Below, piece after piece: positions 2,926 through 62,204 of a DNA stretch of 64,000 nt. The translations under genes were made by a program, and so were the position numbers. Each line of letters opens with the position of its first letter. The stretch's first letter is position 1. The stretch is from positions 22-64,021 of the forward strand of contig MFGN01000001.1 of the NCBI GenBank assembly GCA_001780285.1, written 5' to 3'. The notes beneath the pieces are model-generated. The model ran no database searches. It was given only the letters and a program-made list of their open reading frames with translations, and was not told where the DNA came from. The stretch comes from Candidatus Falkowbacteria bacterium RIFOXYD12_FULL_34_57. GTDB lineage: Bacteria; Patescibacteriota; Patescibacteriia; Patescibacteriales; UBA12075.

Positions 2926-4008
2926 TTACAATCCTAACTCCTCAATTAATTTCTTCTGCTTTCTGGTTATCCTACTTGGAATATTTACCCTTATCTCCAC
3001 CAAGTGATCTCCCCGCCCCCTACCCTGAAGGACATTTATTCCTTTATTTCTTAATTTAAATATGGTGCCAGACTGGGTTCCAGCCGGAATTTTTAAACTT
3101 ACCACTCCCTCAACTGTATCTATATCTATTTTATCACCCAATACTGCTTGTGTGAAGCTTATATTTTCCACGGAATGAATATCATAACCATCTCGCTCAA
3201 ATCGAGGATCGTCTTTTATATTCATTTTAATATATAAATCTCCTGCTGCCGCCCCCCTTTCTCCCGCCTCTCCTTGTCCTACCAGACGAATTGATTCCCC
3301 ATCATTAATTCCTGCCGGAATTTTTACTTGCAGTCTTACAGTATCCATATTAACACCCCTGCCGGAACACTGAGTACATTTCTTTTCATAAGACCTTCCT
3401 TCTCCGCCACATTGATCACAAGCAGACTGCACCTGCATATTACCAAGTATTGTTCTCTGAACTCGAGTTACCTTGCCGGTACCCCTGCAATTGCTACATG
3501 TAATAATTTTACTTCCCGGCTCGGCTAAATTTCCGTTGCAATGTGAACATTTTACTTTTTTATGCAAGCTTATTTCTTTTTCTGCTCCAAAAACAGCTTC
3601 TTTAAAATCAATAGTAAGAATTGTTTGAATATCATTACCGCGCCTTGCTCTTGGGCCATTTTCGCTTCTTGAACCGCCAAAACCGAACATATCTCCAATA
3701 CCGCCGAATATATCCCCCAAATCATCCATATCTACATGTATCCCGCCCTGAGAAAAACCGCCGAATCCCCCGCCGCTAAAACCGCCGGCCATGCCATTCG
3801 TAAAGTCGGAGCCAAACTGATCGTATTGCGCGCGTTTCTGTTCATTTCCTAAAACTTGATAAGCCTCATTAACCTCTTTAAATTTAGCTTCATCACCAGT
3901 AACTTTATCCGGATGATAAACATGCGCCTTCTTGCGGAAAGCTTTTTTTATTTCTTCCTGGCTGGCGTTCTTATTCACACCAAGAATATTGTAATAATCT
4001 TTAGACAT
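2926..4008 (-). CDS. dnaJ: molecular chaperone DnaJ (Hsp40, type I)
   Basis: J domain with HPD (YHPDK), a G/F-rich linker, four CxxCxGxG zinc-finger repeats and the C-terminal substrate-binding domains. Confidence 0.95.
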   Translation of the reverse strand: MSKDYYNILGVNKNASQEEIKKAFRKKAHVYHPDKVTGDEAKFKEVNEAYQVLGNEQKRAQYDQFGSDFTNGMAGGFSGGGFGGFSQGGIHVDMDDLGDIFGGIGDMFGFGGSRSENGPRARRGNDIQTILTIDFKEAVFGAEKEISLHKKVKCSHCNGNLAEPGSKIITCSNCRGTGKVTRVQRTILGNMQVQSACDQCGGEGRSYEKKCTQCSGRGVNMDTVRLQVKIPAGINDGESIRLVGQGEAGERGAAAGDLYIKMNIKDDPRFERDGYDIHSVENISFTQAVLGDKIDIDTVEGVVSLKIPAGTQSGTIFKLRNKGINVLQGRGRGDHLVEIRVNIPSRITRKQKKLIEELGL

Positions 4009-4025
4009 TTATTATCATTTCAGAT

Positions 4026-4123
4026 GTCATTCTGAATATAGCGAAGTGGGGTGAAGAATCTCATTAGTAACAGTAAAATCTAAATTCACGGGATTCTTCG
4101 TCGCTTTTGCTCCTCAGAATGAC
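4026..4123. repeat. GTCATTCTGA...TCAGAATGAC hairpin repeat, copy 2
   Basis: The 10-bp termini and the inner GAAGAATC/GATTCTTC arms are both complementary. It lies between the dnaJ start and the DUF3467 stop. Confidence 0.8.
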
Positions 4124-4129
4124 AAAATA

Positions 4130-4435: not shown

Positions 4436-4531
4436 ATAATTATTTAAATTGTTATATTTTTTATAATAAAATGTACTTAACTGGTTGCTCAAAACATTTG
4501 AACAACCCATGAGAACACTTTAAACCCGAAT

Positions 4532-4618
4532 GTCATTCTGAACGAAGTGAAGAATCTCGTAAATAACGGTAGTCATAATTCAACGAGATTCTTCGTCGCT
4601 ATCGCTTCTCAGAATGAC
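4532..4618. repeat. GTCATTCTGA...TCAGAATGAC hairpin repeat, copy 3 (best preserved)
   Basis: The left arm gtcattctgaacgaagtgaagaatctcg pairs with the right arm cgagattcttcgtcgctatcgcttctcagaatgac. It lies between the dnaK stop and the DUF3467 gene. Confidence 0.85.
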
Positions 4619-4630
4619 ATTATGGTTGAT

Positions 4631-6556
4631 TTATTTTTTATCGTCCTTTTTTTCTTCAAACTCTGCATCAACGGTTCCATCTTTTTTTTCTTTTTTGGCT
4701 TCACTATTTGCAGCCTGATCTGCCCCAGGTTCTCCGGCTTGTGATCCCGCCTGTGCTTGCTGCTGATACATAGCCGTACCAATCTTCTGCGCGATCTCGT
4801 TCATAGCCTCCATCTTAGCCTTGATATCTTCGGTGTTGCCGGAATCTTTTATCTTCTTTAAATCTTCTAATTTTTCTTCCAACTCTTTTTTATCTTCTGT
4901 CTTCATTTTATCTCCCGATTCTTTTATTAATTTTTCTGTGGTAAAGATAACGGTATCGGCCTGATTTTTAATTTCTATTCCCTCTTTCTTCTTTTTATCT
5001 TCGTCAGCGTGCATTTCCGCATCTTTTTTCATTTTTTCCACCTCCGCCTCTGAAAGTCCGGAAGAAGCTGTAATTGTAATCTTTTGCTCTTTTCCCGATG
5101 CCATGTCCTTAGCGGAAACATTTAAAATACCGTTAGCATCAATATCAAACTTTACTTCAATTTGCGGAATACCTCTTGGTGCCGGTGGGAGTCCGTCAAG
5201 CATAAACCTTCCCAATGTTTTGTTATCCGCAGCCATAGATCTTTCACCTTGTAATACATGAATTTCTACTCCCGGCTGATTATCTGCTGCTGTAGAAAAT
5301 ATTTGGGTTTTAGAGGTTGGAATAGTGGTATTTCTTTCAATTAACGGAGTGGATACGCCGCCCAGTGTTTCTATTCCAAGCGTCAGCGGAGTTACATCAA
5401 GCAATAAAACATCCTTTACATCCCCCTGCAAGACACCCGCCTGGACCGCTGCTCCGTTCGCAACCACCTCATCAGGATTTACCCCTAAATGCGGTTCTTT
5501 ATTAAAAAATTCTTTTACTATTTTTTGAACCATGGGCATTCTGGTCATACCTCCAACTAAAATAACCTCTTCCAGATCACCAACAGAAAGCCCTGCATCT
5601 TTTAGGGCAGCACGACACGGAGTTAATGTTTTTTCAACCAAATAACCAACCAATTCCTCAAGTTTTGATCTGGTTAATTTTATCACTAAGTGTTTTGGTC
5701 CATTTTCATCAGTAGTTATAAAAGGTTGATTAATTTCTGTTTCTCCGGATGTGGATAGTTCAATTTTGGCTTTTTCGGCTGCTTCTTTTATTCTTTGCAA
5801 AGCCAGGGAGTCTTTAGACAAATCAATCCCTTGATCTTTCTTGAATTCATCAATAATCCATTTAATAATCACTTGATCAAAATCTTCACCGCCCAAATGA
5901 GTATCTCCATTTGTTGATTTTACCTCTACTGTATCTTCTGAAACATCTAAAATTGACACATCAAAAGTTCCGCCGCCAAGATCATAAACTGCAATTTGCT
6001 GGCCCTTCTTTTTTTCAAAACCATAAGCAAGCGCTGCAGCAGTCGGTTCATTGATAATTCTCTTTACATCAAGTCCGGCAATCTTACCGGCATCTTTGGT
6101 TGCCTGACGCTGAGCATCATTAAAATAAGCCGGAACGGTAATTACTGCTTCTGTTATTTTTTCTCCAATCTTTGCTTCAGCATCTGCTTTTAATTTAGAG
6201 AGTATCATAGCCGAAACCTCTTGCGGACTATACTCCTTATCATTCATTTTTACCCCCACACTATCACCGATCTTCACAATGTCAAAGGGAACTGTTTTTA
6301 TATCCCCCTGAACTTCCGCATCATCATATTTTCTCCCAATTAGACGCTTTACGGCAAAAACCGTATTCTTTGGATTGGTCACCGCCTGTCTTTTTGCGGC
6401 TTGACCAACTAATCTTTCACCACTTTTAGAAATGGCTACAACAGAAGGAGTTGTTCTGTTTCCCTCTGCATTTTCTAATATTTTTGGCTGACCACCCTCA
6501 ATAATCGCCATAGCGCAATTTGTGGTTCCCAAATCTATTCCTAATATTTTTCCCAT
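4631..6556 (-). CDS. dnaK: molecular chaperone DnaK (Hsp70)
   Basis: Full-length Hsp70 with [17 protein letters not shown] and [11 protein letters not shown] signatures and an acidic/Lys-rich tail. Confidence 0.98.
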
Positions 6557-6571
6557 ATTTTTATAATATTA

Positions 6572-6600
6572 ATTTTAAAATATTAACATGCTAATGTTAA
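6572..6600 (-). promoter_or_regulatory. dnaK promoter (TTAACA-N17-TAAAAT) overlapped by palindrome TTAACAT-N4-ATGTTAA (6583-6600)
   Basis: On the sense strand the sequence is TTAACATTAGCATGTTAATATTTTAAAAT. The -35 element and most of the spacer lie inside the palindrome. Confidence 0.5.
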
Positions 6601-6612
6601 TTTATTAATTTG

Positions 6613-7548
6613 TTAATTTGTTAATTGCATTGATTCTACTACCTCTATAAAATCATTTAATGGCAACATGCCGAAATCCGAATTTATAAAAGATAGGCCT
6701 CTGCATATTTCACTATTTAAATTTATTAATGCTCCTACATTTTCACCAATATCCACCATTAAATCCTCTTCATTCGTGCTTGTGACAAAGCTTTTTTTAT
6801 CCACCAACAGGGCTTTTCCTTTTTCAAAATTAATTATTTTGGCGGGATTCAATTTATAGTCTTTACTATCTTTCCCTTGTGCGAAAAAATAATAACCCTT
6901 GTCATCCTCTAAAAACCCCTGGGAATCTAAAAAAGATAATTTCTGCACATTTTCATTTTCCGGCAACTCCCTGCTAACACAGCCAAAAGAAAATTTATCG
7001 TTTTCCAAAAATTCACCGCGAACAATCTTGCCATCCCCCTTTTCGGTTATTTGCACATTAACCTTGCCAAAACGAGCCGGATACTCAAAAGATAATCCAA
7101 GCATCGAGTCCGTAAATTTGAGTTTAGCCGACTCTATCAATTCAGCTTTTTTCTTTAATTCTTCATTTTCGGTTAAAAGGCTGGATTTTTCAGTCTCAAT
7201 GCCGTCTATTTTATCTTTTAAATTAGAAATACGAGCCTCAAAATCTATTCTGGTTTGCCTGGCGCTATTTTGAATTTTTTCCACGCTTGTATTGGTATAT
7301 TTTTTCTGCCAAGCATAAATAACGCTTCCCACCACCACAGCCGTAATTACCACAACAATAAAAGTAAATAATGGGCTTGTTTGCCTCTCGGGCTTCCTAG
7401 TGGAGGTCTTTTTCTCTGCCGCGGGCGCGGGCGCGCTGCTTAAAGAAGTTTTTTTTCTTAAAACCTTCTTAACTTTTTTTAGAGGCGGATTCCCAGAAGA
7501 GATGCCGCCACCTTCATTGCTAACGCTTATTTTTAATTCATTTGCCAT
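6613..7548 (-). CDS. hypothetical membrane-anchored protein (basic N-terminus, 1 TM, coiled coil, globular C-domain)
   Basis: TM segment LFTFIVVVITAVVVGSVIYAW followed by a heptad-rich region. It lies between hsp20 and dnaK on the same strand. Confidence 0.6.
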   Translation of the reverse strand: MANELKISVSNEGGGISSGNPPLKKVKKVLRKKTSLSSAPAPAAEKKTSTRKPERQTSPLFTFIVVVITAVVVGSVIYAWQKKYTNTSVEKIQNSARQTRIDFEARISNLKDKIDGIETEKSSLLTENEELKKKAELIESAKLKFTDSMLGLSFEYPARFGKVNVQITEKGDGKIVRGEFLENDKFSFGCVSRELPENENVQKLSFLDSQGFLEDDKGYYFFAQGKDSKDYKLNPAKIINFEKGKALLVDKKSFVTSTNEEDLMVDIGENVGALINLNSEICRGLSFINSDFGMLPLNDFIEVVESMQLTN

Positions 7549-7693
7549 AATTTGTTGATAATTAATTCAAAATATTCAATAACCAATATTCAATATTCAT
7601 TGAGTCTGTCGCCAAACTTTCATAAAACTTTCAATGCTTAACCTCAAAATTAAACATTAAATGAATATTGAAATATTGAATATTGGATATTTT

Positions 7694-8239: not shown

Positions 8240-9103
8240 CTAACCTACTACCACCCTAGCTGGAATTATTACCTTACCCCTTAATTTATAACCGGGCTTT
8301 ACTTCTTTTATAACCACTTCTTTTTTCTCTTCTTTTTCTTCAATTTTCTTGTCATGATTTTCTTCTTTCCTGTTATTATCTTCAACGGCTTCCATGGTGT
8401 GGATATCAAATTTTTCGCCCATAGTTTTAATTTCCTCCACCCCCTCTTTTTCCAAAATATCTTTGAATTGTTTTAAAACATATTTTACCCCCTCAAACCA
8501 AGGATCGGTTATATTATTATTGTTGTGTTCTACAGATATCTTTAAATTTTCATAAACCGGTAAAATTTCTAGCAAAATTTGTTCATTACTGTATTTTATA
8601 AACTCCATCCTTTCTTCCGTGCTCCGTTTTACTAAATTTTGATAATCAGCCAGAGCGCGCTTATATCTGTGTTCAAAACTTTCGTTGTCCAATAAATATT
8701 TTTCTATAATCTCTCTGGTGAATTCTCCCAAATCTTTTTGCAGCCATTCTTCAGGTTTTAACCATCTATACTTAACCCCCTCATCACTCAACTTTATTTT
8801 ATCTGTTTTTCTTGCCCTGGCCTTATAATTTAAAAATATTAAATGCTTTTGATCTTTTTTATATTTCTCACCTAATTTCAAGCCCTCTGAAACACCCATA
8901 AATTCAATATTCTCAATTTTCATGTTTGTTTCTTCTCTAATTTCTCTTTCCACAGCATCCTTAATTTTTTCACCATATTCAATTTTTCCCCCCGGTACTG
9001 TATACTTATTTTCCCAACAAGGAGCCTTCATTAAAAATAGTTCATCTTTATCATTAAAAATAAAAACACCAACTACGACTCTGGGATATTTTTTTTCACT
9101 CAT
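8240..9103 (-). CDS. grpE: NUDIX hydrolase domain fused to nucleotide exchange factor GrpE
   Basis: Residues 1-140 carry a Nudix box (GGKIEYGEKIKDAVEREIREETNM). Residues about 141-287 carry GrpE motifs (YKRALADYQNLVKR, LLEILPVYENL, GEKFDIHTMEAV, GYKLRGKVIIPARVVV). Confidence 0.85.
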   Translation of the reverse strand: MSEKKYPRVVVGVFIFNDKDELFLMKAPCWENKYTVPGGKIEYGEKIKDAVEREIREETNMKIENIEFMGVSEGLKLGEKYKKDQKHLIFLNYKARARKTDKIKLSDEGVKYRWLKPEEWLQKDLGEFTREIIEKYLLDNESFEHRYKRALADYQNLVKRSTEERMEFIKYSNEQILLEILPVYENLKISVEHNNNNITDPWFEGVKYVLKQFKDILEKEGVEEIKTMGEKFDIHTMEAVEDNNRKEENHDKKIEEKEEKKEVVIKEVKPGYKLRGKVIIPARVVVG

Positions 9104-9123: not shown

Positions 9124-9807
9124 TTAATTAGATATTTTTTTATTAATATATTTAATTAATGCGATATTTTTTTTATAATCCATTCTCATGGGACCCAAAA
9201 CACCAAACAGTCCAACATTATCTTCTGTTCTGTGTTTAGAAATAATCACGCTGCAAAAATTACCAAAAGGATTTTTGGAACCGATTAGGGTGTGAACACC
9301 TATATCAATCTCATCAAAAATACTATCAATCACTTCGTCCATGCGATCAATAACGGTGGATATGTCATGAATTAAGCTAAGCTCATTGAATTCTGGCTGT
9401 TGAAATAAGTTTGAAATTCCTGTATAGTATAAATTATTCCTATGAAATGCGCAAAATACGGCGCCGTCCGAAATTCTAGCTGTAACTTTTGCCGTTTCCT
9501 TGAGGCTTTGTTCGTCGGTATTTTGAAGTACGGAGCAAAAATGATCAGTAATCTGCTTGCTTAGCTTGGAATTTGAAAATTGTTCTAAGAACAAATTATA
9601 CGCTTTTTCGGTTGGAACCCTTCCGGCAGAAGTGTGTGGCTGTATAATATATCCCTCGGACTCCAGCCAGGCTAATTCGTTTCTAGCTGTCGCCGGCGAT
9701 ATATCCAGATTATATTTTTCAACCAAAACACCCGACCCCACCGGCGTGCCCGTCTTGATATGCTCTTGTATTAAAATTTTTAAAATCAATTCCTTTCTTG
9801 AATCCAT
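9124..9807 (-). CDS. hrcA: heat-inducible transcription repressor HrcA (short form, 227 aa)
   Basis: N-terminal wHTH with GTPVGSGVL, LDISPATARNELAWLESEGYIIQPHTSAGRVPTEKAY. The C-terminal region is about 110 aa shorter than in typical HrcA proteins. Confidence 0.85.
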   Translation of the reverse strand: MDSRKELILKILIQEHIKTGTPVGSGVLVEKYNLDISPATARNELAWLESEGYIIQPHTSAGRVPTEKAYNLFLEQFSNSKLSKQITDHFCSVLQNTDEQSLKETAKVTARISDGAVFCAFHRNNLYYTGISNLFQQPEFNELSLIHDISTVIDRMDEVIDSIFDEIDIGVHTLIGSKNPFGNFCSVIISKHRTEDNVGLFGVLGPMRMDYKKNIALIKYINKKISN

Positions 9808-9829: not shown

Positions 9830-9859
9830 ATTATATATCTTTTGGCACTCAGGTGTCAA
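9830..9859 (-). promoter_or_regulatory. hrcA promoter TTGACA-N18-TATAAT
   Basis: The sense-strand TTGACA (plus 9854-9859) lies inside the CIRCE spacer. TATAAT is at plus 9830-9835. Confidence 0.65.
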
Positions 9860-9868
9860 GAGTGCTAA
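9842..9868. promoter_or_regulatory. CIRCE operator (TTGGCACTC-N9-GAGTGCTAA)
   Basis: One mismatch to the CIRCE consensus TTAGCACTC-N9-GAGTGCTAA. It lies between divergent hrcA and the 9908 ORF. Confidence 0.9.
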
Positions 9869-9907: not shown

Positions 9908-10306
9908 ATGGTAGACACAAATCTCATGGACAGACTTTATGAAAAAATTAAAACTGAATTAAAAGGGCTTGAAGGCGAGGCTTTTGAGAAAAAAAAACGG
10001 GAAATTATTGAAGAATTTATTTCTCAATGTCCGGAAGATCAACAGGGGAAACTAAGAAAAAAACAAAAAGATTTTGACAAAAAAACACCGGAAGAAAAAT
10101 TAGCATACTTACAAGCAATGATTCCGAAACAAAAAGAAAAACAAAACGATGCTTTAAAAACTTTTAATGAGGCTGAAAATAAAATTCAAACAGTACTTGA
10201 AGCTATAAAAAATATAAACATAGATGATATGAAGATAGAAATAGATAAAGTGGAAAATATACTAAAGAATATCCAAAAAAACTTAGGTAAATTAGAAAAA
10301 AAATAA
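9908..10306 (+). CDS. hypothetical coiled-coil protein divergent from hrcA
   Basis: AAGGAG SD and a terminator at 10318-10341. The protein is Lys/Glu-rich and helical. A possible promoter TTGGCA-N18-TAATAA overlaps CIRCE. Confidence 0.6.
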   Translation: MVDTNLMDRLYEKIKTELKGLEGEAFEKKKREIIEEFISQCPEDQQGKLRKKQKDFDKKTPEEKLAYLQAMIPKQKEKQNDALKTFNEAENKIQTVLEAIKNINIDDMKIEIDKVENILKNIQKNLGKLEKK

Positions 10307-14778: not shown

Positions 14779-14780
14779 AA

Positions 14781-14808
14781 ACTAAAAGTTAAAAGTGAAA
14801 AACTAAAA
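14781..14808. repeat. 7-bp-periodic A-tract leader repeat (ACTAAAA GTTAAAA GTGAAAA ACTAAAA)
   Basis: Begins 3 nt upstream of the rsmI ATG. It is T-rich on the sense strand. Confidence 0.7.
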
Positions 14809-14901
14809 ATAATAACTCAAAGTTCAAAACTTTTTATACAACTATTTTTGTTAATTTTAATTTTTAACTGTTGTTTTGGTTTTTCGTTCTTAATTTTTGG
14901 C

Positions 14902-16572: not shown

Positions 16573-16620
16573 ATGTTTTGGTTGGGGAAGTTTATAAAAT
16601 CTGGAGTCGCTTTACGACAT

Positions 16621-21168: not shown

Positions 21169-21185
21169 AGTATTTTAAACTAAGA

Positions 21186-21209
21186 GCTAAAAGCTAAAAG
21201 CTAAAAGCT
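21186..21209. repeat. tandem heptamer (GCTAAAA)x3 + GCT in the secF leader
   Basis: Three perfect units lie 18 nt upstream of the secF ATG. The same unit recurs at 61841-61873. Confidence 0.9.
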
Positions 21210-21234
21210 GCTGAAATCGCTTGCGCGACATTTA

Positions 21235-22052: not shown

Positions 22053-24128
22053 TTATGAATTACGAGACTTCACTCCTATTAACCATTTTTTGTTTTCCAT
22101 CCAGCTGCCGCTCAAAATCTGTAAAAATGTCTTTGTTACTATAATTGCCGAAAACATAGAAATACAAACCCCCAAAAACAAAGTAATCGCAAAACCCTTC
22201 ACTATACTAGTAGAAAACCAAATCAAGATAATACAGGTCAGAAGCGTGGAAACATTTCCATCACGGATTGATGGCCATGCCCGATCAAAAGAATCATTAA
22301 TAGCAAGACTTAATGGCTTGCCGTTCTTAAGCTCTTCTTTCAGTCTTTCAAATATCAAAACATTAGCATCAACCGCCATTCCAATTGAAAGAATAAATCC
22401 GGCAAGTCCGGCAAGTGTAAGCGTTACAGAGAATATTTTAAATATTGCGAGCACTAAAATACCATAAATAGTAAGAGATATTACCGCTATTACCCCAGGA
22501 AGGCGATAAAACAAAACCATAAATAAGGCTACAAGCAGAAGACCCAACAACCCCGCCTTGAGAGATTCGGCCATTGAAGCTTTTCCCAAAGTAGCACCGA
22601 CAGTCTGTTGATTTATAAGTTCAATTGGTACCGGAAGCGCCCCAGCATTCAATCTTTGTGCTAACAGTTTTGCCTCTTTAATGTTAAAACTGCCGGAAAT
22701 TACAGCTCGGCCCCCAGTTATTTTACTGTTTACCGTCGGTATGCTGATTGGATAATTGTCTAAAAATATTGCTACCGGCTTGCCCACATTTCTCTCTGTA
22801 ATTTCTGCAAACATATCTGCTCCCTCTGAATCAAACTCCAAACCAACTTCCGGATTATTGGTGTTTGGATCAAATTGAACCAAGGCACGATCCAGATTCT
22901 TTCCTGTAAGCTCTGTATTCTCCCAATCTTTTTCATCGCCAATAATATCCTTTTCAGTTATTGTCCTAAGGAAAATATGACTAATATTGTATTCTTCTAT
23001 ATCTCTTTCTTCTTGTTTATATATCAAATGATATCCAAATTCGGTTTCTACTATATCAGAAATTGTTCCGTTTCCTTGATTAAAAACAGCATCAGAAAAG
23101 GGCTTTACCATAGAAGCTCTATCAAACCAACCCAAATCTCCCCCACTTGGTCCGCTTGGACCGGTAGAATTTTCCCGAGCCAACTTGGCAAAATTTTGCG
23201 GGTTTGCCTCTGTTTTGAGTTTATTAACCTTTTCCATGGCCTCTTCTTGCGTTAAACCGCTCTCACACGAATCAATTCCTTCATAACAAATTAAAATATG
23301 TGCTGCTTTTATTTCTTTTTCCGTTTCTGCTTCATTGAAGGGGTTGGTTTTCTTTCTTTTTTCGTTAAGCTTGATAATCTCATAACCATTTGATGCTGGT
23401 ACTATATTGTGGGTATATTCACCAGGATTTAAACCCTCTATTTCCTTGATAATATCTGCGTGCTCTTTTTTTGTAATCCATCCAAAATTTCCGCCATTTT
23501 CTTTAGTATTTGTATCATCACTATATTCTTTTGCTAATTCAGCAAAATCGCCACCGGATGATAATTTTTCCAAAATTTCTGCACCCTTTTCATTGGCTTG
23601 TTTGTTTATTTCATTCATCTGCTGTCTTTCCTCTTCTGTTAGTTCGCGCAGTTGTTCTATTTGTTCCTTAAACTCAAGCAATGGAGTCTCTCCAATCATT
23701 TTAATCGCTTCATTCACATCTTTGATTCCGGCAAGTTCGGCAATTACTCGGTACTCTTCTCCGGAAACATTGGTTTGAATATTCGGCTCACTAACTCCAA
23801 ATACATTTACTCTTCGTTCTATTACATCGCGTACCCCCTCCAGGGCGCTGACCTTATCCTTGTCGGCAATATTTGACATATCAGCCTTATAAACCAGGTG
23901 GCTTCCACCCTGTAAATCAAGCCCCAATCTAAAAGGAACTTCTTTTACTTTTGGTAAATTAATAGAGTATCCTGTTTTATTCGCTACCCAAGTCGTTCCT
24001 CGGTTATAATAATCCCCGGCATCAATCAAGCCCCCTATAACTATCAAGATAATTATGAGTAAAAAAATACGCCAAATCTTTCCCCTCTCACTTGGCTGAA
24101 ACAATTTTTGCACTATATTTTCGGACAT
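22053..24128 (-). CDS. secD: protein translocase subunit SecD with two parvulin-like (PpiC) modules inserted in the periplasmic domain
   Basis: SecD motifs GLDLQGGSHLVY, GETPLLEFK, AIFLDNYPISIPTV and a C-terminal 6-TM bundle. The insertion at residues about 155-400 includes AAHILI, GGDLGWF and FGYHLIY. Confidence 0.9.
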   Translation of the reverse strand: MSENIVQKLFQPSERGKIWRIFLLIIILIVIGGLIDAGDYYNRGTTWVANKTGYSINLPKVKEVPFRLGLDLQGGSHLVYKADMSNIADKDKVSALEGVRDVIERRVNVFGVSEPNIQTNVSGEEYRVIAELAGIKDVNEAIKMIGETPLLEFKEQIEQLRELTEEERQQMNEINKQANEKGAEILEKLSSGGDFAELAKEYSDDTNTKENGGNFGWITKKEHADIIKEIEGLNPGEYTHNIVPASNGYEIIKLNEKRKKTNPFNEAETEKEIKAAHILICYEGIDSCESGLTQEEAMEKVNKLKTEANPQNFAKLARENSTGPSGPSGGDLGWFDRASMVKPFSDAVFNQGNGTISDIVETEFGYHLIYKQEERDIEEYNISHIFLRTITEKDIIGDEKDWENTELTGKNLDRALVQFDPNTNNPEVGLEFDSEGADMFAEITERNVGKPVAIFLDNYPISIPTVNSKITGGRAVISGSFNIKEAKLLAQRLNAGALPVPIELINQQTVGATLGKASMAESLKAGLLGLLLVALFMVLFYRLPGVIAVISLTIYGILVLAIFKIFSVTLTLAGLAGFILSIGMAVDANVLIFERLKEELKNGKPLSLAINDSFDRAWPSIRDGNVSTLLTCIILIWFSTSIVKGFAITLFLGVCISMFSAIIVTKTFLQILSGSWMENKKWLIGVKSRNS

Positions 24129-24350
24129 AATAATTTTAACTCAAAATGCAAAATTTTCCACCTGAAGCGGATCAGCCAAAATAATAAATTAATTATTGCC
24201 GGCTGAAAAACCAAAAATTGCAGATTGAATATATTTATATTATAAGTTTTAATTAAAAATAAACAACCTTAAAAAAGGCAGTTATTATAATATATAATAA
24301 ACCATAATAAAATAAAAATCAATTGACAAAACACGAAATATATATCATTT

Positions 24351-30025: not shown

Positions 30026-30080
30026 AAACTTCTCATAACTCGTAACGCATAGCTCATAACAAGCACTTTTGTTATTATGG

Positions 30081-30163
30081 GTATCAACGAAAAATCTTAT
30101 TAAAACGCGCTAACTAATCCTAATTTCAAGAGAGTCTTCGTCTTTTTCGCTCCCCAGAATAAC
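30081..30163. repeat. degenerate copy of the GTCATTCTGA hairpin repeat (right arm recognisable)
   Basis: gagtcttcgtctttttcgctccccagaataac aligns with the right arm of copy 2. The left arm has decayed. Confidence 0.5.
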
Positions 30164-30194
30164 ATCAGAGAGTAATACGCAACGAATAAAATAC

Positions 30195-31408: not shown

Positions 31409-32575
31409 TTAAAAAAGACTCAAAAATGCATGCCAAAGCGACACGAATTTATCTCCATATCTAGCTATATCTTTGAAGGTGACAAATACCACCAAAATCA
31501 TCAAAAGCACAAAACCAATATAATGAACCATTGCCTCTACTTCTTTTTTTACCGGACCCCCTTTAAATTTCTCAATAATCAAAAATAATATTCTTCCTCC
31601 ATCCAACGCCGGAAAAGGAAGCGCGTTAATAATCGCCAAATTCATAGAAAGAATTGCGGTAAACTGTAAAAAATAAACAAATCCCATGCGAGCAAATTGT
31701 CCGGTTAAAACCGCTATCCCAACAGGTCCTGAAATATCCGCGCCCACCCCCGCTCCCATTATCAAACCTTTAATCATTTCATAAAAAGCAAAAAGTATAG
31801 CTAAAATAAAAATAATAGTGGTCTTGATTCCGTACCAAATAGCCAAATGAACCGGATACTTAACTAAACCAATATCAGCCATACCAATCCCAATTCCGGG
31901 AAGCCCGGTTTCTTCCATTATTTCCGGCACTATCTTTTTTTCTATTTCCACATTTCCCCTGCGGATTATTAAACTTAACTCTTGCCCATCTTTTTCTTTT
32001 ATATAATTTTGAAATTCTTCGCTAACATTAATTTTCTGTGTATCAACAGATACAATCATGTCCCCCATTCTAATATCAGCATCTTTAGCAGGCGTTTCTT
32101 TGACCACTGCCACTATTTGAATCTGCCTATTACTGATTTTAGCATGACTACTAACGCCCTCAATCCCCTGCGGAAGTCCGACCATAAAACCAAAAGAGAT
32201 CAAGATAGCGGCTAAAACCACATTCATTGAAACTCCGGCAAGAAGTATCATAGCCCTCTGCCAAATGGGCTTGCTGTTAAAATGATTAGGATTTCCGCCC
32301 GCCTCATCGTCTTCTCCTAGCTTTACAAACCCTCCAAGAGGCACCCAATTAACAGAATAAATGGTATCATCAGCGTCTTTCACGCTCTTGTTGCCTTTTA
32401 CCTTTTTCCATTTGCCATTTTTATCCCTATAAACACCAAATGCTCTAGGTGGCAAACCAAAACCAAATTCTTCCGGCTTTAGATCAAATTTCTTTGCCAT
32501 CCAAAAATGCCCAAATTCATGCACGAACACCAAAATAGATAAAAGAAAAACAAATGATATAATTGTTATAAACAT
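31409..32575 (-). CDS. rseP: RIP metalloprotease RseP (site-2 protease, M50, with PDZ)
   Basis: HEFGHFWMAK and a PDZ-like ADIRMGDMIVSV, plus the C-terminal NLAIINALPFPALDGG. Start moved to 32575 because the track N-terminus translates a tandem repeat. Confidence 0.9.
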   Translation of the reverse strand: MFITIISFVFLLSILVFVHEFGHFWMAKKFDLKPEEFGFGLPPRAFGVYRDKNGKWKKVKGNKSVKDADDTIYSVNWVPLGGFVKLGEDDEAGGNPNHFNSKPIWQRAMILLAGVSMNVVLAAILISFGFMVGLPQGIEGVSSHAKISNRQIQIVAVVKETPAKDADIRMGDMIVSVDTQKINVSEEFQNYIKEKDGQELSLIIRRGNVEIEKKIVPEIMEETGLPGIGIGMADIGLVKYPVHLAIWYGIKTTIIFILAILFAFYEMIKGLIMGAGVGADISGPVGIAVLTGQFARMGFVYFLQFTAILSMNLAIINALPFPALDGGRILFLIIEKFKGGPVKKEVEAMVHYIGFVLLMILVVFVTFKDIARYGDKFVSLWHAFLSLF

Positions 32576-32579
32576 AATA

Positions 32580-32613
32580 AAAATGCAAAAATCAAAATGC
32601 AAAAATCAAAATG
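32580..32613. repeat. tandem 14-mer (AAAATGCAAAAATC)x2 + partial, in the rseP leader
   Basis: Read directly from the sequence. It begins 5 nt upstream of the rseP ATG. Confidence 0.8.
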
Positions 32614-32649: not shown

Positions 32650-32685
32650 ATTCTTAAATATCACAAAATTCTTAAATATCACAAA
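32650..32685. repeat. perfect tandem 18-mer (ATTCTTAAATATCACAAA)x2
   Basis: Read directly from the sequence, in the frr-rseP intergenic region. Confidence 0.85.
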
Positions 32686-35639: not shown

Positions 35640-35668
35640 ATTATAACATTATAGATATTATTTTGCAA
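35640..35668 (-). promoter_or_regulatory. promoter TTGCAA-N17-TATAAT placed 6 nt from the holB ATG (leaderless architecture)
   Basis: Sense strand reads TTGCAAAATAATATCTATAATGTTATAAT-TTAACC-ATG. No SD is present. Confidence 0.55.
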
Positions 35669-35678
35669 TTATTTTGCA
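35657..35678. repeat. perfect tandem 11-mer (ATTATTTTGCA)x2
   Basis: Read directly from the sequence. It overlaps the holB -35 region. Confidence 0.8.
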
Positions 35679-35689
35679 ATTTTTTATGT

Positions 35690-41565: not shown

Positions 41566-41632
41566 ATTTTTTTACAAAAAATTTATCTAGTTAAAAGTTA
41601 AAAATCTATAAAGTTGAAAGTAGTTTATATAA

Positions 41633-41661: not shown

Positions 41662-41740
41662 TTATATCAAAACGTTAAAATAAAACTTAATCTATCGCGC
41701 AAGCGATACTCGGGCGGAATAAATTTTTAACTAAGACCCC

Positions 41741-44927: not shown

Positions 44928-44959
44928 AACTCAAAGCTTAAAGTGTAGAACTCAAAGCT
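44928..44959. repeat. direct repeat AACTCAAAGCT x2 (21-bp period) in the dnaG leader
   Basis: Read directly from the sequence. The proximal word AATTTTAACTCAAA is shared with the secD leader (24130-24146). Confidence 0.7.
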
Positions 44960-52672: not shown

Positions 52673-52703
52673 GTATTAAGTGTATAGTATTAAGTATTAA
52701 GTG
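52673..52703. repeat. short tandem/dispersed TATTAAG words in a gene leader
   Basis: gTATTAAGtgtatagTATTAAGTATTAAGtg lies 8 nt upstream of ATG 52665. Confidence 0.6.
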
Positions 52704-55440: not shown

Positions 55441-56415
55441 TTATATTTTGTAATAATCTTGATACCACTCCACAAATCTTTTTATCCCCTCTTCTACCGT
55501 AACTTGCGGCTTATATCCAAGCATTTTCTCCGCCTTGGAAATATCCGCCGAACTTACCGGCACATCTCCGGGTTGCATCGGCATCATGTTCTTTTTTGCC
55601 CTTTTGCCCAAATTTTTTTCAATCTCAGCGATATAATCCAATAATTTCACCGACCTGCCGCCGGCTAAATTAAATATTTCATAAGAATGCTCCTCGCTTC
55701 TATTGATTGCGGACACCACCCCGTCTACGATATCCGATACATAAGTAAAATCTCTGGCCATATTGCCATAATTGAAAACATTAATCGGTTTATCCCTGGC
55801 AATAGCATCGGTAAATAAAAATAAAGCCATATCCGGCCGGCCCCATGGCCCGTAAACCGTAAAAAACCTAAGTCCCGTGCATCTCAAACCGAACAAATTA
55901 TGATAAACGAAAGCTTTTTCCTCGTTGCCTTTTTTGGTCGCCGCATACAGAGACATCGGCGCATCCACCTTGTCATCTTCCGAAAAAGGCATTTTTTTAT
56001 TAGCCCCGTAAACAGAGCTGGAAGAAGCAAAAACAAAATCTTTGATATCATGATGCCGGCACAGCTCCAACATATTCAAAGTGCCAAGATAATTAGAGTG
56101 CTGATAAGCAAAGGGATTAGTAAGCGAATACCGCACTCCGGCTTGCGCCGCTAAATGTAATATCTTGTCTATCTTTTCTGTTTTAAAAATTTTATCCATT
56201 TCCTCGTAATTCGTAATATCTGTTTCAAAAATATAAAAATTATTAAAATCTTTCTCTAAATTTTTTATCCTATCTCTTTTTATCCGCGGATCATAATAAT
56301 TATTAAAATTATCAACAATCAATATTCTATCTCCCCGATTAAGTAAAACACGAGCTACACTAGATCCGACAAATCCGGCCCCTCCGGTAATCAAAATTGT
56401 TTGATTAACTTTCAT
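55441..56415 (-). CDS. NAD-dependent nucleotide-sugar epimerase (UDP-glucuronate 4-epimerase-like)
   Basis: Motifs TGGAGFVGS, DNFNNYYDP and YAATKKGNE. Confidence 0.88.
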   Translation of the reverse strand: MKVNQTILITGGAGFVGSSVARVLLNRGDRILIVDNFNNYYDPRIKRDRIKNLEKDFNNFYIFETDITNYEEMDKIFKTEKIDKILHLAAQAGVRYSLTNPFAYQHSNYLGTLNMLELCRHHDIKDFVFASSSSVYGANKKMPFSEDDKVDAPMSLYAATKKGNEEKAFVYHNLFGLRCTGLRFFTVYGPWGRPDMALFLFTDAIARDKPINVFNYGNMARDFTYVSDIVDGVVSAINRSEEHSYEIFNLAGGRSVKLLDYIAEIEKNLGKRAKKNMMPMQPGDVPVSSADISKAEKMLGYKPQVTVEEGIKRFVEWYQDYYKI

Positions 56416-56460
56416 ATAAACATTTAATCATTTAAACATGTAAGCAAAAATTTATCTCTT

Positions 56461-56487
56461 GTCATTCTGAACTTGATTCAGAATGAC
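56461..56487. repeat. minimal copy of the hairpin repeat (GTCATTCTGAA-CTTGA-TTCAGAATGAC)
   Basis: Perfect 11-bp stem using the same termini as copies 1-3. It lies between the epimerase start and the NUDIX stop. Confidence 0.8.
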
Positions 56488-57068: not shown

Positions 57069-57178
57069 AAATAAATAATTAGTCGAAAGTCCATAAAGTC
57101 TATAAAGTTAAAAGTAATTTATTAAAATTTTTAACTTTCAACTTTTGACTTTTAAATTTCTACCAGACAACTAGTTAT

Positions 57179-61840: not shown

Positions 61841-61873
61841 CTAAAAGCTAAAAGCTAAAAGCTAAAAGCTAAT
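61841..61873. repeat. tandem GCTAAA(A) units x4-5 in the gene leader
   Basis: ACTAAAA GCTAAAA GCTAAA GCTAAAA GCTAATG, about 11 nt upstream of the start codon. The unit is the same as at 21186-21209. Confidence 0.9.
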
Positions 61874-61975
61874 GTCATAAATAATAATATGGTTCTTTAT
61901 AAGTAAACAAAAACAACGATAATTAACCGTTATTTAGCTAACTTTTATTATATCAAAGCCTCAAAACATGTCAAT

Positions 61976-62004
61976 TTGACATTTTTATAACTATATGATA
62001 TAAT
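61976..62004 (+). promoter_or_regulatory. consensus promoter TTGACA-N17-TGaTATAAT
   Basis: Read directly from the sequence. It drives the small ORF at 62028. Confidence 0.7.
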
Positions 62005-62027: not shown

Positions 62028-62204
62028 ATGTCCATTAACGATCTGGCTCAAATATATAATTTTTTGAGCAACCAAATTCAATCGCTTCGGTATAGAATCT
62101 ATATGCTTGAAGCAAATTTCCAAAACCAAAAAACCATTGAAGCTCTGAAACAAGAGCTGCAAAAAAAAGAAAAAAAACAAAAAGAAATAGAAAAACAATT
62201 CTAA
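62028..62204 (+). CDS. small coiled-coil protein (58 aa), below the ORF-track size cutoff
   Basis: Translation MSINDLAQIYNFLSNQIQSLRYRIYMLEANFQNQKTIEALKQELQKKEKKQKEIEKQF. It has a consensus promoter, an AAGGA SD and a terminator. Confidence 0.55.
   Translation: MSINDLAQIYNFLSNQIQSLRYRIYMLEANFQNQKTIEALKQELQKKEKKQKEIEKQF

Follow-up and report, generated by a model that had tools for sequence, protein, structure and literature searches.

Short AT-rich tandem arrays beside stop and start codons in a Falkowbacteria genome and their probable origin by slippage in place

The intergenic spacers of a 64,000-nucleotide (nt) stretch of the Candidatus Falkowbacteria bacterium RIFOXYD12_FULL_34_57 genome (contig MFGN01000001.1; the whole stretch analysed is called the window, and positions are counted from its first letter) contain numerous short, AT-rich tandem arrays, among them four copies of the word TTTTAGC directly upstream of secF. 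On balance we think it probable that these arrays originate from in-situ slippage of heptamer and octamer words, that arrays standing alone are neutral to mildly useful leader sequences, and that arrays occurring as inverted pairs form intercistronic hairpins. A previous, sequence-only reading had pointed to AT-rich short tandem repeats immediately before many start codons, and every repeat site that it listed is present on the gene-sense (minus) strand. The window has a GC content of about 35% (25% in the spacers) and a coding density of 89%, and its minus strand carries most of the genes. Pfam assignments agree with the gene names for secF, secD, the rsmI-like methylase, dnaG, the M50 protease, holB, the GtrA-glycosyltransferase (GtrA-GT), NUDIX and secA genes and for the gene of a Wzy_C/TPR protein, which had been described as O-antigen-ligase-like and is referred to here as the ligase gene. 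Known RNA families and tRNAs were not found in the 64-kb window.

The arrays clearly exceed what base composition provides. Tandem Repeats Finder (TRF; period at least 5, score at least 40), applied to the 44 spacers of the window, detected arrays covering 587 nt, or 10.4% of the spacer bases, in 14 of the 44. The corresponding values for dinucleotide-shuffled spacers were 101 nt, 1.8% and 2.7 spacers, with maxima of 239 nt and 7 spacers among 100 shuffles. In a separate test, a self-match score calculated over positions −50 to −1 of 54 genes beat 95% of dinucleotide shuffles in 13 leaders (2.7 expected), six of which reached p≤0.01. For comparison we used 80 related SecF loci, together with an array-rich subset of 12 sequences (the lineage set). 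Arrays occupy 0.8% of the coding bases of the window versus 13% of its spacer bases, and over all 81 sequences 0.6% of coding bases versus 3–6% of spacers; this depletion in genes is partly forced, as most units contain stop triplets. Arrays typically comprise 2.5–5 copies of units that are mostly 7–8 nt long, and the commonest periods among 103 spacer arrays are 7 (20 arrays), 8 (14) and 14 (13). With a GC content of about 19% and, in most cases, an imperfect match of 70–95%, they use a different word in almost every spacer, so that 113 arrays contain 74 distinct units. TTTTAGC is the sole word used at two separate loci of the window; the other repeated units are the two arms of one spacer.

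The position of the arrays is as distinctive as their abundance. Arrays occupy 20% of the window's spacer bases that lie no more than 45 nt from a start and 14.5% of those equally close to a stop, as against 6% in mid-spacer. In 46 long co-directional spacers of the lineage set the distribution is bimodal, with 25–31% at −11 to −40 relative to the start and 25% at +11 to +30 after the stop, and only 8–13% further in from either end. Thus the proposed tie of the repeats to starts holds in so far as they are densest 11–40 nt upstream, but they are nearly as dense just after stops. In the 12 array-rich sequences arrays are present in 62 of 115 co-directional, 6 of 15 convergent and 8 of 18 divergent spacers. 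The 17 start-proximal arrays of the window end −5 to 24 nt from the start codon and show no strand bias: T exceeds A in 10 and A exceeds T in 7. Near starts in the lineage set A and T are balanced (674 versus 671), and the −40 to −1 regions of the window are A-rich overall.

A Shine-Dalgarno (SD) match of at least 4 nt precedes only about 25% of the genes with a spacer of at least 40 nt. As had been claimed, most of the repeat-bearing genes lack an SD sequence, yet the same holds for about 75% of all genes with such spacers. In this genome, then, translation seems as a rule to begin independently of an SD. The suggested anticorrelation of arrays and SD sequences was recovered, at modest strength: an SD is present at 1 of 14 genes with an array versus 10 of 30 without in the window (p=0.076), and at 2 of 42 versus 22 of 105 in the lineage set (p=0.014). 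The effect is real but modest and partly trivial, since the array fills the place of the SD; of the 30 array-free window genes, 20 also lack one, and the majority of SD-less genes carry no array.

The array upstream of secF consists of 4.3 copies of TTTTAGC (21180–21209, minus strand; TRF period 7, 95% match, score 53; p=0.005 against shuffles) and ends 11 nt 5′ of the ATG within the 66-nt suhB–secF spacer. Its counterpart at the ligase gene is a perfect array of 4.6 copies (61841–61872, minus strand; TRF period 7, 100% match, score 64), which likewise ends 11 nt 5′ of the ATG. No significant RNA structure is predicted for the secF array, the ligase array is also predicted to be unstructured, and no inverted partner of the TTTTAGC arrays was found nearby, either in the spacer or in the adjoining coding sequence. 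At both genes the array is followed by a sequence of the TTTTAGTTTA type, and this common combination of word and box could mean shared regulation. The ligase array is preceded, at a distance of about 75 nt, by a sigma-70 promoter, TTGACA-16-TGnTATAAT (61947–61974, minus strand), that matches the consensus at 12 of 12 positions. The related sequence L086 conserves this promoter, and L087 retains the −10 hexamer; the leader additionally holds a conserved hairpin. Because this conserved promoter lies upstream, the ligase array would be part of the transcribed leader, that is, the 5′ untranslated region (5′UTR). A leaderless reading of both genes, based on the −10-like boxes TAAAAT and TACATT at −9 to −4, was rejected, as transcription would, from their spacing, begin within the open reading frame (ORF); at the ligase gene it is also countered by the conserved promoter far upstream.

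Two further features adjoin these loci. Beside the secF array, and not part of it, a hairpin GTCGC-GCAA-GCGAT directly follows the suhB stop codon (21216–21229, minus strand), and its stem is kept by compensatory changes in L084 (GTCGC/GCGAC) and L085 (GTCGT/ACGAC). A small hairpin of the form (A)TGTCGC-GCAA-GCGA(T/C) recurs right after stop codons at 21216–21229, 16606–16618 and 41694–41707, and may represent a 3′-end or processing signal. At the ligase locus (61947–62004 and, on the plus strand, 62028–62204) two perfect 12/12 sigma-70 promoters stand back to back and have TGTCAAATTGACA in common. The plus-strand promoter faces an unannotated 58-aa coiled-coil-like ORF (MSINDLAQIYNF...) with an AGGA ribosome-binding site, a terminator and no NCBI gene call.

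The TTTTAGC word itself is widespread. At least 120 metagenome contigs, with GC contents of 24–66%, contain the sequence (GCTTTTA)3G, in up to about 20 copies. Among the contigs listed, the (GCTTTTA)3 arrays run in either direction and lie near stops more frequently than near starts; sibling AGCT heptamer arrays often adjoin them (GCTCTTA, GCTTCTA, GCTGTTA, GCTTTTG), as do inverted partners, (AGCTAAC)n. The AGCT-heptamer contigs (L088–L207) derive from soils, peat, sludge and water; GCTAACA is another of their words, and they often carry multi-word clusters and inverted pairs. This spread places the window arrays in a pan-bacterial class of heptamer repeats and argues against a regulator dedicated to the lineage.

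Within the Patescibacteria the arrays are lineage-specific and not simply a matter of AT-richness. Next to the 13% of spacer bases in the window, coverage is 38% in L004, 35% in L012 and 23% in L027, and seven relatives (L004, L012, L027, L009, L005, L061 and L060) have 14–38% of their spacer bases in arrays, whereas the equally AT-rich Patescibacteria L008, L018, L029, L043 and L052 have about 0%. Orthologous spacers were compared between species with 78–82% protein identity. The suhB–secF spacer measures 40 nt in L084, where it contains TTAG only (about 0.5 copies) and no array, 45 nt in L085, with AGCTTTTAGCTTT (about 1.7 copies), and 66 nt in the window, with 4.3 copies. At the position of the ligase array L086 has the degenerate T-rich words GTTTTGAG..GCTTTTAT..TTTTGAGTT and L087 has four copies of TTTAAG; elsewhere, a 57-nt (AAACATCT)n array of L087 (4566–4622) faces a 16-nt array-free spacer in L086. 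These differences in copy number and the degenerate words of orthologous spacers show that the arrays expand in place from pre-existing words and turn over quickly, which supports the earlier suggestion of slippage-prone spacers. Three independent assemblies of this population are 100% identical to the window across 3–21 kb, the secF array included.

Two ideas about the origin of the words were set aside. If the heptamers had begun as mini-hairpins, with a 4-nt palindrome such as AGCT and a 3-nt loop, palindromic tetramers should abound; they are present in 45 of 74 units versus 38.8±3.3 expected (P=0.05), an excess that is only marginal. Several words (AAAAGCT, AAAATTG, AATTACG and AACGCRT) recur across genomes, but with 74 units in 113 arrays and a small AT-rich word space an excess over chance, and with it a common vocabulary, was not demonstrated.

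Many arrays come as inverted pairs. In this layout a stop codon is followed by (word)n, a spacer segment, (reverse-complement word)n and the next ATG; it is seen in the window at 7549–7693 and 57069–57178 and in relatives at 3506–3603 and 9764–9897 of L012, 7219–7460 of L004 and 4168–4354 of L009. At least two reverse-complement words are present elsewhere in the same spacer for 39 of 65 arrays (about 60%), compared with 16–20 of 65 for the three control orientations (reverse, complement and direct). The median folding z-score is −3.4 for spacers with arrays and −1.65 for those without, relative to mononucleotide shuffles, a less strict reference than that of the z-scores given for the NUDIX and 6613 leaders of the window. 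Among 25 structured spacers with arrays, the median distance of the outermost pair is 6 nt from the stop and 9 nt from the start. In L012 nearly every spacer of a ribosomal-protein operon is a stop-to-start word hairpin with z between −9 and −13. L012 (1–11539) represents an S10/spc ribosomal-protein operon of a marine Patescibacteria genome in which word hairpins of 46–134 nt occupy almost every spacer; the operon also holds two inserted ORFs for four-helix-bundle proteins resembling those of 23S intervening sequences (4788–5183 and 8600–8980).

Both inverted pairs of the window fold well. Upstream of the 6613 gene the words (AATATTC) at 7662–7691 and (GAATATT) at 7571–7599 (minus strand; TRF 44 for each) bracket the spacer between hsp20 and the 6613 gene; the arm at 7571–7599 has period 7 and 4.1 copies. 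The spacer fold reaches −38.5 kcal/mol (z=−5.7), with the outermost pair at +1 from the stop and −21 from the start. At the NUDIX gene AAAGT words (57129–57159) oppose ACTTT words (57086–57108; TRF period 9, 2.6 copies) on the minus strand, and the pair (57086–57159) forms a hairpin of −22.1 kcal/mol (z=−3.1). By contrast, secF, the ligase gene, dnaG, rseP, GtrA-GT and rsmI have lone arrays that are predicted to remain unstructured whether or not the start region is included, and the secA array has neither a partner nor structure.

On the basis of these observations, we propose that replication slippage would expand, in place, a word already existing in the spacer. Arrays would then gather in the two least-constrained parts of the spacer, namely the stretch from the promoter or terminator to the start codon and the region just past the stop. 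Most of them would be transcribed, as 5′UTR or intercistronic RNA, because the ligase gene has a conserved upstream promoter and secF an operon context. Lone arrays, such as those of secF, the ligase gene, dnaG, rseP and GtrA-GT, would be unstructured, AU-rich and SD-free leaders that are tolerated, and perhaps mildly favoured, because about 75% of the genes start translation without an SD. Paired arrays would fold into hairpins that begin at the stop codon and end no more than about 10 nt short of the next start, and their likely role would be that of intercistronic mRNA hairpins serving stability, processing or translational coupling. Apart from a partial exception at holB, the arrays are not promoter UP elements, and they are probably not a sequence-specific U-rich enhancer.

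Several points weigh against this model. That the arrays are transcribed and tolerated is what we infer from sequence, and genes in the related loci were called crudely, as the longest ORF from its first ATG, which blurs the distances to starts. The TTTTAGC word and the box TTTTAGTTTA-N3-AT/TA-T-ATG precede two unlinked genes of the window. Slippage by itself leaves the formation of inverted partner arrays unexplained. Moreover, pure neutrality is hard to reconcile with the near-perfect hairpins throughout the L012 ribosomal-protein operon of a streamlined genome, and with the T-rich words of the YTTTNAG type that persist in one leader position across three ligase orthologues.

A rival explanation is that paired arrays are selected stems joining a stop to the next start region, for SD-less translational coupling, RNase III processing or 3′ stabilisation, with lone arrays being half-built or decayed forms. 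The bimodal placement at spacer ends, the excess of inverted partners over control orientations, the stems that span the spacer from close behind the stop to close before the start (medians of 6 and 9 nt), and the hairpin-shaped spacers of the L012 operon are all consistent with such selection, for which the STRR hairpin between hupS and hupL provides a precedent (PMC2670836; short tandemly repeated repetitive sequences, STRR, are discussed below). Yet most window arrays (secF, ligase, dnaG, rseP, GtrA-GT and secA) are partnerless and unstructured, and arrays come and go among close species. A test for RNA-level selection on the stems gave no signal: G·U and A·C mismatches number 24 and 18 (p=0.44), in a test that lacked power, as the array-free (terminator) stems used as a positive control were also flat (19 versus 19). 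We regard selection for hairpins, the main alternative, as possible but rather unlikely as the general explanation. The stronger proposition that word-hairpin spacers constitute, in some Falkowbacteria-like bacteria, a device for SD-independent coupling or processing, with the lone arrays as its one-armed members, appears to us more doubtful again. The main idea of the sequence-only reading, that the repeats are U-rich, S1-dependent translational enhancers replacing the SD, draws on the array peak at −11 to −40, the scarcity of SD sequences beside arrays in the lineage set, the unstructured lone arrays 5′ of starts and the T-rich words in the ligase leader of three species; a like proposal was made for TAACTGA repeats (PMC4679880). 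Against it as a general explanation stand the absence of a sense-strand T bias in leaders that are A-rich overall, the arrays that are nearly as frequent after stops and occur even in convergent spacers, the 20 of 30 array-free genes that are SD-less as well, and the secF orthologue in L084, which has no array; we consider it improbable.

Phase variation, in which slippage in copy number would tune or switch the downstream gene within a population, is very unlikely in our estimation. Copy number does differ among related species, the perfect ligase array suggests a recent change, and several of the genes that follow arrays have to do with the envelope (the Wzy_C ligase-like gene, GtrA-GT and other glycosyltransferase genes). 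Against this, many arrays precede housekeeping genes (secF, dnaG, rsmI, holB, secA, dnaK and, in L012, ribosomal-protein genes), the arrays are short and mostly imperfect, and the three assemblies agree fully over the secF array. HutP-type recognition uses UAG triplets every 7 nt (three or more, 4 nt apart). The secF and ligase arrays, which read UAG-CUUU-UAG-CUUU-UAG, have this UAG-N4-UAG spacing, a property of the TTTTAGC word only, and could accordingly be binding sites for a sequence-specific oligomeric RNA- or DNA-binding protein, with the two genes as a small regulon. The same word and downstream box before two unlinked genes would fit, as would CTTTKAGTTWA within 20 nt of the ATG in five genes, a motif derived post hoc from those same genes. 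But with 74 units in 113 arrays a single factor cannot explain the class, (GCTTTTA)3 is found in at least 120 unrelated metagenome contigs, and the array is absent or degenerate in orthologues. No HutP-family match was found among the 20 window proteins scanned (64 kb of genome). We therefore give a dedicated binding protein scant credence. Least probable of all are promoter UP elements or curved DNA from phased A/T tracts, an option raised on the AT-richness of the repeats (about 19% GC). Geometry excludes it for nearly all arrays: they end 0–25 nt from the ATG, too near to leave space for a core promoter downstream, the ligase array is located downstream of its conserved promoter, that of secF sits in a 66-nt intra-operon spacer, and periods of 7–8 nt are out of helical phase. 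A partial exception is holB, where the 11-mer repeat overlaps and duplicates a predicted −35 hexamer.

The dominant unit lengths match the heptamer bias on record for bacterial repeats, and a class of this kind, of which the sequence-only reading knew no description, has in fact been described. STRR were reportedly first described by Mazel et al. in 1990. In cyanobacteria their heptamers form a hairpin between hupS and hupL that may raise transcript stability (PMC2670836). Direct TAACTGA repeats are found in marine Beggiatoaceae, some cyanobacteria and Bacteroidetes (MacGregor 2015, PMC4679880); they comprise 2–6 copies and end a few nt from starts, about 10% of the downstream genes have an SD, S1, Csp and CsrA were proposed as binders, and the downstream functions are without pattern (PMC4679880). 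Heptamers are also over-represented in bacterial spacers, with lengths that vary among close relatives and polymerase slippage as the proposed cause (PMC4692102). For long simple sequence repeats (LSSR), the heptamer bias was laid to slippage by Mrazek (2007), as cited in PMC4679880 and PMC4692102.

The arrays described here are of the same general kind as LSSR and STRR heptamers: heptamer-led tandem units, in excess over composition, located in spacers and variable in length among relatives. They resemble STRR in their tandem 7-nt units of unknown function and in the hairpins between co-transcribed genes. However, STRR are a few heptamer families reused many times in a filamentous cyanobacterium, whereas here words are rarely reused from one spacer to the next (74 units in 113 arrays), the arrays hug stops and starts, and they belong to a candidate-phylum bacterium with a small genome; the few dispersed heptamer families of STRR in the strict sense are not seen. 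With the TAACTGA repeats they share the start-proximal heptamers and the rarity of an SD downstream (1 of 14 and 2 of 42), but not the one dominant word in fixed forward orientation: there are many words, no bias in orientation or in T over A, about the same density after stops, and frequent inverted pairs. LSSR are alike in heptamer bias, spacer location, length variation at the same locus, placement nearer to one ORF and slippage origin; in the accounts cited, those of Xanthomonas and Nostoc (GGGAATC, GGGGAYT) are G-rich, quadruplex-forming and limited to one word per genome, unlike the AT-rich, diverse and often inverted arrays of the window lineage. Borg repeats are comparable in arising independently at each site, evolving fast, being absent from relatives, often lying at gene ends or in spacers and having a suggested role in regulatory RNA, but they are perfect, with longer units and a one-strand A bias, and half of them lie inside ORFs as amino-acid repeats (PMC9879509); the short arrays studied here rarely match perfectly and avoid coding sequence. 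REP/BIME, REPIN and MITE elements too are spacer hairpins between co-directional genes; they are dispersed copies of one family mobilised in trans, while the word hairpins are unique to their spacers and apparently made in place. REP hairpins stabilise upstream mRNA. The association with surface or virulence genes typical of contingency repeats is not seen, as arrays occur at secF, dnaG, rsmI, holB, secA and dnaK besides glycosyltransferase genes. Distinct here are the host phylum, the word diversity, the density and the inverted architecture from stop to start.

The remaining arrays of the window vary in quality, and most of the sites named by the sequence-only reading are genuine. A 14-mer (GCATTTTGATTTTT) repeated 2.7 times precedes rseP (32576–32613, minus strand; TRF 69, 95%), abutting the ATG at 32575 and predicted to be unstructured; the same spacer holds a second array, an 18-mer in two copies at 32650–32685. 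At holB an 11-mer (AATTGCAAAAT) is repeated 2.6 times (35657–35685, minus strand; TRF 51, 94%) and contains the −35-like TTGCAA. The predicted holB promoter (35668–35640, minus strand) reads TTGCAA-17-TATAAT with an upstream TG (TGtTATAAT), and with only 6 nt between its −10 and the ATG, the holB mRNA may be leaderless. GtrA-GT is preceded by (ACTTAAT) in 4.3 copies (52673–52702, minus strand; TRF 39, period 7, 73%; p=0.005), unstructured and ending 7 nt before the ATG, and secA by 4.1 copies of GTTATGAG-like heptads (30032–30060, minus strand; TRF 37, 72%; p=0.02), 6 nt before the ATG. A match to the secA leader in L012 was discarded as an orthologous site, as it lies upstream of a ribosomal-protein gene there. 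At dnaG, AGCTTTGAGTT occurs twice with a period of 21 (44928–44938 and 44949–44959, minus strand; score 11, p=0.005), 7 nt before the ATG. Upstream of dnaK, AATTAACA/TGTTAAT arrays (6559–6626, minus strand; TRF 49–57; p=0.015) overlap the stop codon of the upstream gene, and ATGTTTAA words abut the ATG of an epimerase gene (55441–56415; array at 56412–56443, minus strand; TRF 41–50; p=0.015).

Three of the listed sites did not stand as proposed. The degenerate T4-N3 heptads abutting the rsmI ATG (14779–14823, minus strand; TRF 30–39) are weak and not significant against shuffles (p=0.24). Upstream of secD there is a single word, GCATTTTGAGTTAAAATTATT (24129–24149, minus strand; self-repetition p=0.22), and not a repeat, while an exact 14-mer, TTTGAGTTAAAATT, is indeed common to the secD and dnaG leaders. 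The 22-mers at 57099 and 41605 agree at 20 of 22 positions, but the latter belongs to an AAAGTT-word array with a 23-nt period in two copies (41577–41621; TRF 62) in a convergent 3′–3′ spacer, beside a bidirectional terminator.

Some further elements of the window were noted. SecD (22053–24128, minus strand; 691 aa) has two PpiC-type rotamase (peptidyl-prolyl isomerase) domains between the N-terminal P1 part and the P1 head, and an inositol monophosphatase gene stands between secD and secF. A dispersed palindromic element of about 110 nt occupies spacers around dnaJ, DUF3467 and dnaK (4009–4129, 4511–4630 and 1175–1290), with partial copies near 56440–56475 and 30130–30170. Its sequence is TGTCATTCTGAGGAGC..GCGACGAAGAATC..CGTGA ... 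GAGATTCTTCAC..TTCAGAATGACA, and it is also found as GTCATTCTGA...TCAGAATGAC; this GTCATTCTGA element is a true multi-copy REP/MITE-like family, separate from the word arrays. Between the divergent genes 9124–9807 (minus strand) and 9908–10306 (plus strand) there is a CIRCE-like inverted repeat of the HrcA operator type, TTAGCACTC-N9-GAGTGCCAA (9842–9868).

If the arrays are mere slippage products, they point to an unusual mutational regime in this lineage and show how much start-adjacent untranslated sequence an SD-poor genome tolerates; annotators should then be warned that calls of start codons and small ORFs in such spacers are unreliable. If the hairpins are functional, they would be a way to link or process cistrons in candidate-phylum bacteria, where initiation and operon expression are essentially unstudied, and the role of STRR and TAACTGA heptamers would become testable in a second, very different lineage. 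Should the word-hairpin device prove true, it would represent a previously undescribed organisation of polycistronic expression in reduced genomes.

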